From the sequence record PQ299149: a stretch of 42,883 nucleotides of DNA. One strand, 5' to 3'. Under the pieces are notes generated by a model. The model ran no database searches, was not told where the DNA came from, and was given only the letters and a program-made list of their open reading frames with translations. Shown here piece after piece: positions 31,731 to 32,332 of the stretch (positions are counted from its first letter, which is position 1; the number at the start of each line of letters is the position of its first letter). The translations under genes were made by a program, and so were the position numbers. This stretch comes from Escherichia phage LLS.

Positions 31731-32156
31731 GGTTTAACCCTCTGTTAGGCGGCTGCCACCGCCAGTGAAACTTCTCCATACACAACAGAGAAGGGCACCC
31801 GCGCGATTGTTATGGGTAGACAGGCCACTTCCCTCGCGCCCGGGTGGATTGGGTTATGAGCCCGTCGCCCGGTGATGCCCTTGTCTCTTGTGTAAAAAAG
31901 GTGCCCACCGATGCGATGGGCAAAGACTACACACAGCAATGATTTTGTTGTGGCGGTGGTGCCTCCACCTGCCGGACCGGCCAGAACCGGCGACGCTACA
32001 CCTCAAGAAACGTATTCATTTCAAAAGTTGAAATAAAAACTTGTTGGCCTCGTCACGTGCGCAGAGCCGCATTACCACAACTGGAAGCGCACTCTTTCGG
32101 TAACAAACCTGCCCCCGCAGTGAAAGAGAGAAGGAGTGCGCTTTCACGTTGTGCCC

Positions 32157-32198
32157 TTAAAAAGCTGGCTGTCACCCTCAGGGTGAAAGTGAGCAGCC
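32157..32198 (-). terminator. tL-like intrinsic terminator in the early-left leader
   Basis: Minus-strand hairpin GGCTG...TCACCC-TGA-GGGTGA-CAGCC followed by CUUUUUAA; about 70-110 nt downstream of the predicted pL start. Confidence 0.5.
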
Positions 32199-32268
32199 AG
32201 AACAGGGATCACTTCTTATTGCTTTGGCCTGCTTTTAACCACATCAGGCGCGGTGGTTTGGTGTCGAC

Positions 32269-32332
32269 AGAAAAAAATCTAACTTAACTTAGTTTATTGG
32301 TCAAGTGAAAACATCAAACTAAACTTAGTTTG
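32269..32332 (-). promoter_or_regulatory. pL-like promoter with OL operators
   Basis: Minus strand TTGACC (32304-32299), 17-nt spacer, TAGATT (32281-32276); near-palindrome CAAACTAAACTTAGTTTG (32315-32332) and AACTTAGTTT elements. Confidence 0.55.

Follow-up and report, generated by a model that had tools for sequence, protein, structure and literature searches.

A modular, non-coding early-left leader with two terminators and a three-way-junction RNA in Escherichia phage LLS

Lambda and P22 use N, and how the early-left operon is controlled in lambdoid phages without an N gene, among them SfV, ST64B, Stx2c phages and many E. coli prophages, is to our knowledge not understood. Escherichia phage LLS (sequence record PQ299149), analysed here over a stretch of 42,883 nucleotides that we call the window, poses the question in concrete form: a leader of about 540 nt lies between its early-left promoter, pL, and its first early-left gene, a yfdP-like gene starting at 31730. 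The original prediction, made from the letters alone, saw in this leader a promoter-proximal terminator and no recognizable N gene, and proposed that the operon needs a factor encoded elsewhere, or uses a cis-acting RNA like the put element of HK022, or is constitutively attenuated. We find that the leader is the non-coding, modular early-left leader of an N-less lambdoid prophage of the SfV/ST64B/e14 type, and that almost every part of it is a conserved RNA module. In order of transcription these are a 5' element, PK; a unit that resembles a small RNA (sRNA) and ends at terminator T1; a long helix, B'; a second such unit, ending at terminator T2; and element B, an RNA that folds as a three-way junction. 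On a slight balance of probability, the best explanation is that the two units yield terminated, sRNA-like leader transcripts, and that element B acts in cis on messages transcribed past the terminators.

Two terminated units ahead of the early-left operon

T1 and T2 are real by energy, conservation and covariation. T1 (32159..32200, minus strand), identified by folding and conservation, consists of a hairpin (32200..32165) and a run of five U residues (32163..32159); it folds at -22.6 kcal/mol, with z = -2.8 against shuffles, and forms the 3' end of a pL-proximal RNA of about 110 nt. This is the hairpin with U tract that had already been noticed downstream of pL, and it is conserved in homologues; the palindrome TCACCCTCAGGGTGA (32172..32186), listed by the original prediction as a feature of its own, is the apical part of T1. 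In homologues of the type found in E. coli Nissle 1917, the basal stem shows a compensatory change (CUGGCUG/CAGCCAG versus CUGGCGG/CCGCCAG), and the apical part is wholly replaced in homologues while the basal stem is conserved. T2 (31894..31922, minus strand), found by a terminator scan, is a 9-bp hairpin (31922..31902) followed by CC and six U residues (31899..31894), and folds at -14.3 kcal/mol (z = -4.1). The leader folded in one piece also beats its shuffles (z = -4.05). It is thus structured as a whole, a feature that had been overlooked along with T2 and the conserved modules.

Both terminators stand ahead of the coding part, so expression of the operon would need read-through, whether by leakage or by a factor. 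The promoter is where it had been placed: a consensus scan returns the pL-like sigma-70 sequence TTGACC-17-TAGATT on the minus strand (32304..32276), from which a transcript would start near 32269. It lies 55 nt downstream of the stop codon of the cI-like repressor gene, on the same strand. That gene reads towards pL, and since the sequence from the cI stop codon to pL holds no terminator, T1 is the first terminator after cI and would also have to end the immunity transcript in the lysogen.

The leader contains no N-like gene, as had been claimed. Its five open reading frames (ORFs) of 40-76 aa, one of them an Arg/His-rich frame of 50 aa opening with TTG (31854..32006), were considered as N-like candidates and rejected: they match no PHROG family and overlap conserved RNA structures in which homologues show length differences other than triplets. 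A scan of 15 gene-sized ORFs, drawn from the immunity region and the right arm, gave no N family, the sole antiterminator family among them being that of a late Q-like protein. The boxA/boxB search that had been recommended revealed no nut site in the leader. Matches to boxA (CGCUCUUA-like; YGCTCTTWA, one mismatch) include no minus-strand site in the leader and number 24 in the window against 31 expected, and the small hairpins of the leader have no GNRA-like pentaloops.

The leader is instead a mosaic. In BLAST searches against phages and E. coli genomes, its relatives differ from one stretch of the leader to the next, and close relatives gain or lose whole modules; homologues of the RNA structures that the ORFs overlap measure 96, 97, 98, 99, 100, 119, 120 or 123 nt, differences that are not multiples of three. 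In the prophage of E. coli Nissle 1917, PK, T1 and B are joined directly and precede rdgC, not yfdP. This direct junction identifies the roughly 270 nt between the T1 module and B in the window as an inserted block, and the arrangement marks the outer modules as portable cis elements that do not depend on which gene comes next. In phage Flotzy (CDS0053-0055) and in E. coli RefSeq entries, short genes for a "hypothetical protein" are annotated over leader modules and B; such calls are probably false.

PK (ACCACCGCGCCUGAUGUGGUUAAAAGCAGGC, 31 nt, 32227..32257, minus strand), delimited by conservation among phage records, is the first transcribed part from pL and lies upstream of T1 and T2. Copies with 91-98% identity stand in 137 phage records, among them lambda, P22, HK620, 434, SfV and SfII, and 45 distinct contexts of PK were found. 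It could form an H-type pseudoknot (ACCAC/GUGGU with GCCUG/CAGGC), a possible model in which the stems are invariant and so offer no covariation check. The counterpart in lambda, at 34394-34428, is nearly identical, and likewise that in P22. In the pL operons of these two phages PK sits downstream of N, flanked by orf28/ral and by the start of sieB, which has the opposite orientation; this is just downstream of the region antisense to the 5' end of sieB, the putative origin of the sas RNA of P22. We know of no function assigned to this stretch in either phage. Because PK is present in these N-using phages, it is not a substitute for N. A pairing of the PK 3' strand (GCAGGCCA) with the 5' arm of T1, tried as an antiterminator, was dropped, as it is not conserved in the Nissle-type leader.

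The leader units appear to be sRNA-like, with the build typical of Hfq-dependent RNAs: 5' structure, a single-stranded stretch of A-R-N triplets or seed, and a U-tailed terminator. In the first unit, the single-stranded linker holds four A-R-N triplets (AGC-AAU-AAG-AAG, 32212..32223, minus strand, read from the sequence), a motif for the distal face of Hfq whose role is taken from what is established for that protein. Between the first unit and the second lies B' (32075..32153, minus strand), a long irregular helix found by folding, CACAACGUGAAAGCGCAC...GUGCGCUUCCAGUUGUG. The inverted repeat GTGAAAG-N14-CTTTCAC that had been reported around 32120 is present at 32147..32120, within this longer conserved helix. 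The outer strands of B', CACAAC/GUUGUG, resemble stem P1 of element B, and B' matches the covariance model of that element weakly (12-15 bits), through the outer helix only. Homologues of B' occur in Klebsiella phages and in IMG/VR loci.

The second unit begins with a module related to the sRNA STnc100. This module, X (31947..32081, minus strand), seen in an alignment of upstream sequences, is made up of GUUGUGGUAAUGCGGCUCUGCGCACG, an inserted hairpin (32040..32012) similar to the 5' hairpin of RprA, the hairpin GGUGG-AGGCA-CCACC (31969..31955) and the heptamer CCACAAC (31953..31947), all on the minus strand. Common to the window and to the SfV and ST64B leaders are GUGGU(G/A)AAUGCGGCUC, the AGGCA-loop hairpin and CCACAAC. 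The SfV and ST64B leaders match the Rfam family STnc100 (RF02076) with 39.5 and 35.1 bits, respectively, the gathering score being 47, and the SfV alignment spans the full 206 positions of the model, from just after PK to the terminator before B. In this comparison, the window shares the blocks GUGGUAAUGCGGCUC...GGAGGCACC...CCACAAC; the STnc100 model ends at the terminator and excludes element B. Both STnc100 and PasD are prophage sRNAs, and PasD adjoins Q and holin (bioRxiv 10.64898/2026.05.13.724894). In ST64B, induction of the noncoding RNA STnc1310 goes together with that of two genes lying downstream of CI (PMC7067206).

Two observations on relatives of this region stand apart. About 150 nt of the window (32093..31945, minus strand), ending just short of the RprA-like block, are 71-80% identical to Klebsiella phages vB_KpnP_ZX1, SopranoGao, LASTA and SJM3, in which the counterparts of module X lie near the ends of genomes of about 61 kb, in unannotated DNA. 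In some related leaders (five IMG/VR loci, upstream of B), the tRNA T-arm-like sequences GGGTTCGAGTCCC, GGGTTCGAATCCC and GGTTCGATTCC occur just before CCACAAC, a hint that parts of these leaders may descend from tRNA genes.

The 3' part of the second unit resembles RprA. Over the 50 nt that lead up to the U tract of T2, the Rfam family RprA (RF00034) is matched at 40.8 bits (E = 0.001-0.003; gathering score 70), with an RprA-like block at 31922..31940 on the minus strand, and 26 consecutive nucleotides (AUUGCUGUGUGUAGUCUUUGCCCAUC) coincide with the verified sequence of E. coli RprA. A conserved single-stranded block of the RprA type and a 3' terminator are thus both present in the window. The closest E. 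coli prophage scores 48.1 bits, also below 70. Within the alignment of this block (A4), TGCTGTGTG.AGTC.T is invariant; a GCUGUGUGUAGUC-type block is found upstream of the terminator in about half of the loci that contain B, and one ST64B-like locus has CAACGAAUUGCUGUGUGAAGUC, which matches RprA at 21 of 22 positions.

The correspondence with RprA extends to a similar AU-rich 5' hairpin and to the order of the 3' part, in which the shared block is followed by the terminator, whereas the central part of RprA is replaced in the window by a GC-rich insertion of 47 nt. AACGAAUU is absent from the window and kept in the ST64B-like relative. We take the AACGAAUU/AACGAAUUGCUGUGUG stretch to be the segment of RprA that pairs with rpoS, and the short product released from RprA by RNase E presumably covers about the 3' part that is shared here. 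Cleavage of RprA to release a shorter form has been described (PMC6202311). The location differs, RprA being encoded on the chromosome between ydiK and ydiL and the block described here in a phage leader. Chromosomal rprA, next to ydiL, shares its 3' 50 nt with phage leaders, and the locus has no B after its terminator; it is a possibility that RprA descended from a prophage leader module. A pairing of the RprA-like block with the 5' strand of P1 of element B was also considered and dropped, only 6 bp being complementary, with no covariation between variants.

Element B, a conserved RNA placed after terminators

Element B is a 123-nt three-way-junction RNA (31771..31893, minus strand), defined by covariation, folding and a covariance model. 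Its closing stem P1, of 18-20 bp, starts where the T2 U tract ends; an invariant core lies in P2, and P3 is a variable hairpin. In an alignment of 25 diverse sequences (A3), 90.6% of the cells are paired and 11 pairs are changed on both sides; none of 500 shuffles reached the observed values, and slid controls gave 34-52%. RNAalifold and single-sequence folding recover the same structure, the single fold having an energy of -53.6 kcal/mol (z = -3.7), and G-U pairs place the element on the sense strand of the early-left operon. Against the covariance model it reaches 105.6 bits, and the model detects no further copy in the window. P1 pairs a purine-rich strand resembling a Shine-Dalgarno (SD) sequence with a pyrimidine-rich, anti-SD-like strand.

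Element B is found in 2808 of 5426 complete E. coli genomes (52%), often in more than one copy and in up to five, and in about 30 other Enterobacterales species. Its E. coli copies are often annotated as "hypothetical protein". A run of T residues lies directly upstream of the element in 135 of 154 unique contexts, accompanied in 132 of these by a stable hairpin. The first gene after it varies among phages, being yfdP-like, rdgC or another. In prophages of Pantoea and Raoultella, an element of this type stands between the Q gene with its terminator and the holin and endolysin genes; the covariance model finds none in the late leader of phage LLS itself, and CPS-53 of E. coli K-12 (yfdP), tried as a model locus, is without B. 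In Stx2c phage PV98-693, an isrK-like match of 34.7 bits, cut by the end of the locus, lies about 2.5 kb from B.

To judge from a limited search, and allowing that it may go by another name, the element appears to be undescribed. No Rfam 15 family matches it at any threshold in the window, its relatives or distant loci, nothing in the whole window matches Rfam at gathering thresholds, and permissive searches of the leader, of relatives and of distant loci gave RprA and STnc100 matches below threshold and none for B. A full-text search for the core found nothing, and the string GGGCUCAUAACCC appears elsewhere only in papers on tRNA-fMet.

The core is GACGGGCUCAUAACCCAAUCC (21 nt, 31846..31866, minus strand, read from the sequence). 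At the tip of P2 it forms the hairpin GGG-CUCAUAA-CCC, identical at 13 of 13 positions to the anticodon stem-loop of initiator tRNA-fMet, in which the three G-C pairs and the loop are the defining feature of the initiator anticodon arm. The anticodon stem-loop is all that B shares with this tRNA. The flanks differ (GAC...AAUCC in B, UC...GAAG in the tRNA), an acceptor or CCA end, a D arm and a conserved T loop are missing, the loop of B varies at positions 37-38 and rarely at 32, 33 and 36, and ARAGORN detects no tRNA or tmRNA in the window. Like the E. coli thrS operator, an instance of tRNA-anticodon mimicry, B is placed in a 5' leader close to a start codon.

The core reaches well beyond the Enterobacterales. 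Most copies of B retrieved through P1 keep CUCAU, and the 21-nt core occurs in 47 species-level genomes, including distant phyla in which the flanking stems covary. Only about four chance matches are expected for the pattern, so that most of the distant matches are real. With wholly different self-complementary flanks, the core is found in Planctomycetota, Acidobacteriota, Alpha-, Delta- and Gammaproteobacteria, and Saccharibacteria. Where its distant neighbours were checked they are phage genes, the core following a major head gene, lying between tail genes or being near an endolysin-like gene recognized from ORF translation only. A metagenome scan in which the loop was left free returned mostly chance matches; CTCATAA was the sole recurring loop, these being true elements, and no new variants emerged. 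On one uncultured bacterial contig, about 700 nt separate a B-core hairpin from a sequence similar to hammerhead type II (30.9 bits, E = 0.027) that has the CUGAUGA and GAAAC boxes.

The short interval between element B and the first gene is also patterned. At the 3' edge of P1 stands AUGGAGAA (31772..31779, minus strand), which comparison of variants presents either as an orphan SD-like GGAGAA or as the start of an SD-less short ORF, MEKFHWRWQPPNRGLNHE, whose translation is putative. GGAGA is near-invariant, and 89 of 90 unique variants have AUG or GUG as the codon before it. In about 72 of the 90, the main start codon follows 46-53 nt downstream of this (A/G)UG, and the short ORF stops within -25 to +12 nt of the main start in 60, often with AUGA or AUGAGUAA overlaps; in the window it ends 8 nt into the yfdP-like gene. 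Since AUGGAGAA is also the ribosome-binding context that this phage seems to favour, the copy after B is equally readable as an orphan SD. There follows a hairpin, P4 (GGCGG-UGGCAG-CCGCC, 31748..31763, minus strand), established by covariation: 73 of 82 unique variants form a hairpin around a GCA-containing loop, consensus (U/G)GCA(G), with 29 distinct stems, as compared with 19% of shuffles. The ribosome-binding site comes after P4. For the 3' strand of P1, rich in pyrimidines, there are two possible partners, the purine-rich 5' strand of the same stem or GGAGAA together with the real SD, and an exchange between them would make a plausible switch.

Expression past the terminators

From the anatomy of T1 and T2, which is observed, we infer that most transcripts from pL would end at one or the other, and that in a lysogen transcripts reading through from cI would end there as well. 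The resulting short RNAs would act as sRNAs, relatives of STnc100 and PasD and of the 3' half of RprA, following a logic known from StxS and IsrK. IsrK, from Gifsy-1, acts on a long read-through isoform. StxS is the terminated pR'-tR' leader of Stx phages, acting as an Hfq sRNA at the same rpoS site as RprA (PMC7547250). In these systems, as would be the case here with pL, T1, T2 and the gene at 31730, a short RNA is bounded by a phage promoter and a U-tailed terminator subject to conditional read-through; StxS comes from the Q-controlled pR', whereas the leader of phage LLS starts at the pL of an N-less phage and carries two tandem units. Phage searches with the leader detected no similarity to StxS. 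The terminated units are variants of the kind already known from StxS, STnc100, PasD and RprA. In a second step, polymerases that read through T2 would transcribe B from the last U of that terminator onward. The structure and placement of B are observed, and they suggest that B may act in cis on the read-through mRNA, through translation initiation, processing or both, and not through termination.

Several points weigh against this two-step explanation. A permissive Rfam search gives no STnc100 match in the window, a result attributable to the insertion of T1 and of the hairpin in module X; the RprA score of the window is below the gathering score (40.8 versus 70 bits); and CC separates the U tract of T2 from its stem. 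How efficiently T1 and T2 terminate, whether the short RNAs exist and are stable, whether Hfq binds them and what B does are all deduced from sequence. The core loop has variants (UUCAUAA, CCCAUAA, CCCACCA and a 6-nt CCCUAA, in few copies). Of 90 variants, 16 have a premature stop in the short ORF and in 13 it passes the main start, and its peptide is not conserved. Finally, the core hairpin also occurs in structural-gene clusters of phages from other phyla, and a role tied to the first gene after a terminator may be too narrow.

A stronger claim can be made for B: that it constitutes a new and very widespread class of phage cis-regulatory RNA in which the hairpin truly mimics the initiator anticodon arm, engages the 30S P site or an initiator-specific factor, and drives or gates translation from the SD-less (A/G)UG. 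We regard this as doubtful. Were it true, B would be a bacterial start device comparable to an internal ribosome entry site, only read-through transcripts would be translated, and the core would do the same job across phyla.

The same identity with tRNA-fMet, 13 positions of 13, lends itself to another reading, in which B is a tRNA-derived or tRNA-mimicking stand-alone RNA that serves as a processing signal for RNase P or RNase III, or as a decoy for VapC-type nucleases, MetRS or the 30S P site. The three-way-junction shape and the T-arm-like GGTTCGAATCC pieces in some related leaders would suit such an origin. P1 begins exactly at the end of the U tract, so that a cut there would leave the sRNA with its native 3' end and the mRNA with a protected 5' end. 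That phage genomes from many phyla have the core at several positions unrelated to one another agrees with a portable and self-contained RNA, and in the cross-phylum core set the sole variable loop positions are 37-38, which adjoin the VapC cut site. This account is nevertheless unlikely. It has to contend with the negative ARAGORN result and the missing tRNA parts listed above, and RNase P needs no anticodon arm, which leaves the conservation of the core unexplained. Enterobacterial copies, moreover, keep a fixed spacing to the next start codon, which argues for a role in cis.

The analogy to HK022 put raised by the original prediction would have PK or B make RNA polymerase resistant to terminators, thereby replacing N. 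HK022 is likewise an N-less lambdoid phage with a conserved, structured early-leader RNA, and some points in phage LLS speak for such an RNA-based, processive antitermination: N and nut are missing, PK is transcribed first, upstream of T1 and T2, and a long operon is headed by B, whose structure in the nascent RNA is highly conserved and whose core is kept across phyla, as might be expected if it bound a universal machine such as RNA polymerase. The put sites, however, lie immediately behind the promoter of each early operon and comprise two stem-loops in about 70 nt (PMC9378689), whereas PK is a possible pseudoknot and B is a three-way junction in single copy, downstream of terminators. Neither the sequence nor the architecture of putL is recognizable here; HK022 is absent among the BLAST matches of the leader, and its putL region, read directly, bears no resemblance. 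Against putL and putR in HK022 there is one B per phage, and the covariance model finds no second copy for the right operon in the 42.9-kb window. Its position downstream of T1 and T2 means that B cannot rescue them, and no terminators beyond chance further along the operon call for antitermination. PK, for its part, is shared with lambda and P22, where it lies downstream of N in pL operons that depend on that protein. Lastly, B follows Q-dependent late terminators elsewhere, where Q already supplies antitermination and an RNA antiterminator would be redundant, which argues against B in this capacity.

Given its place after terminators, including Q-controlled ones, and its single copy, B is unlikely to be an antiterminator, and we judge the whole put-like account distinctly unlikely. 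What stands of the earlier interpretation is the absence of N and nut, the strong promoter-proximal terminator and the idea of a cis-acting RNA as the feature of interest; the parallel with put is not supported. In the reading preferred here, the operon is expressed without recourse to N/nut or put.

Another gene of the phage might instead encode a factor that recognizes small hairpins of the leader, such as P3 and P4 with their (U/G)UGCAG loops or GGUGG-AGGCA-CCACC, as boxB-like sites for antitermination or translational control. Covarying stems with conserved loops are a hallmark of protein operators, GUGCAG-loop hairpins recur at the ribosome-binding sites of early genes in both operons, and mEp021 offers a precedent in which the N-like Gp17 is encoded in the right operon and not just after pL (PMC11893012). 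Yet apart from the late Q-like gene no Arg-rich N-like ORF and no PHROG antiterminator was found among the scanned ORFs of the window, boxA is lacking from the leader transcript, the loops are not GNRA-like pentaloops, and the total of such hairpins is near chance (5 versus 3.1). On this evidence a factor of that kind seems quite improbable.

Plain constitutive attenuation by mosaic debris, with terminators that hold cI read-through and pL expression low and conserved pieces that have no function, would suit a leader that is clearly mosaic and differs by whole modules between close relatives, early-left yfdPQR-like genes that are accessory, and a T1 needed in any case to end the cI transcript, but it is very improbable indeed in view of the compensatory changes in P1, P2, P3 and P4, which show selection on RNA structure and contradict debris for B, the persistence of the 21-nt core from Enterobacterales to Acidobacteriota and Planctomycetota with different flanking stems, and the abundance of B in E. 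coli genomes (52%, up to five copies).

Prophage setting and significance

The window is that of a lambdoid prophage, in which a cI-like and a cro-like gene diverge from the operator region. The cI-like repressor gene, of the LexA/S24 family, occupies 32359..32985 on the minus strand (phrog_4, E = 1e-55), and the cro-like gene 33085..33300 on the plus strand. Adjoining pL is a 22-bp perfect palindrome, ATCAAACTAAGTTTAGTTTGAT (32313..32334, read from the sequence), which is operator-like (OL); related CTAAGTT half-sites sit in the divergent region between cI and cro, and the repressor may bind the palindrome. To the right lie a gene of the CII-like/YmfL family, replication genes and the Q-like late antiterminator gene (37806..38519, plus strand; phrog_304, E = 1e-71). 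The early-left operon opens with an SD, AGAGGG (31743..31738), and the YfdP-like gene, which together cover 31359..31743 on the minus strand with the ATG at 31730 (phrog_204, E = 6e-42; also supported by the ORF list and RefSeq homologues). A YfdQ-like gene and then a gene for an HD hydrolase (YfdR-like) follow, a set that resembles those of SfV, ST64B, mEp460 and CPS-53.

The octamer ATGGAGAA is present in eight copies in the window, against 1.3 expected: at 6460, 33860 and 36042 on the plus strand and at 31779, 30356, 29344, 28736 and 14444 on the minus strand. Six of the eight lie 5-10 nt ahead of a gene start codon, and the octamer appears to be the favoured ribosome-binding context of the phage. 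Hairpins with GUGCAG or UGGCAG loops adjoin such sites at the ant-like, xis-like, yfdR-like and yfdP-like genes, in both operons (36021-36038, plus strand; 28739-28756, about 30362-30376 and 31748-31763, minus strand). An RNA-binding factor could use them as operators, although the number of GUGCAG-type hairpins in the window, as given above, is near that expected by chance.

For N-less lambdoid phages in general, the locus shows an early-left leader built from portable RNA modules. Read-through from pL or cI in such prophages should yield RprA- and STnc100-like sRNAs able to interfere with host regulation, and relatives that keep AACGAAUUGCUGUGUG, which we assume to be the stretch pairing with rpoS, are candidates for RprA-like action on that message. 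If the mimicry of the initiator anticodon arm is functional, element B would be a novel bacterial means of regulating the start of translation or of escaping a host function; otherwise, B would still be useful in prophage annotation for marking the first gene after a conditional terminator.

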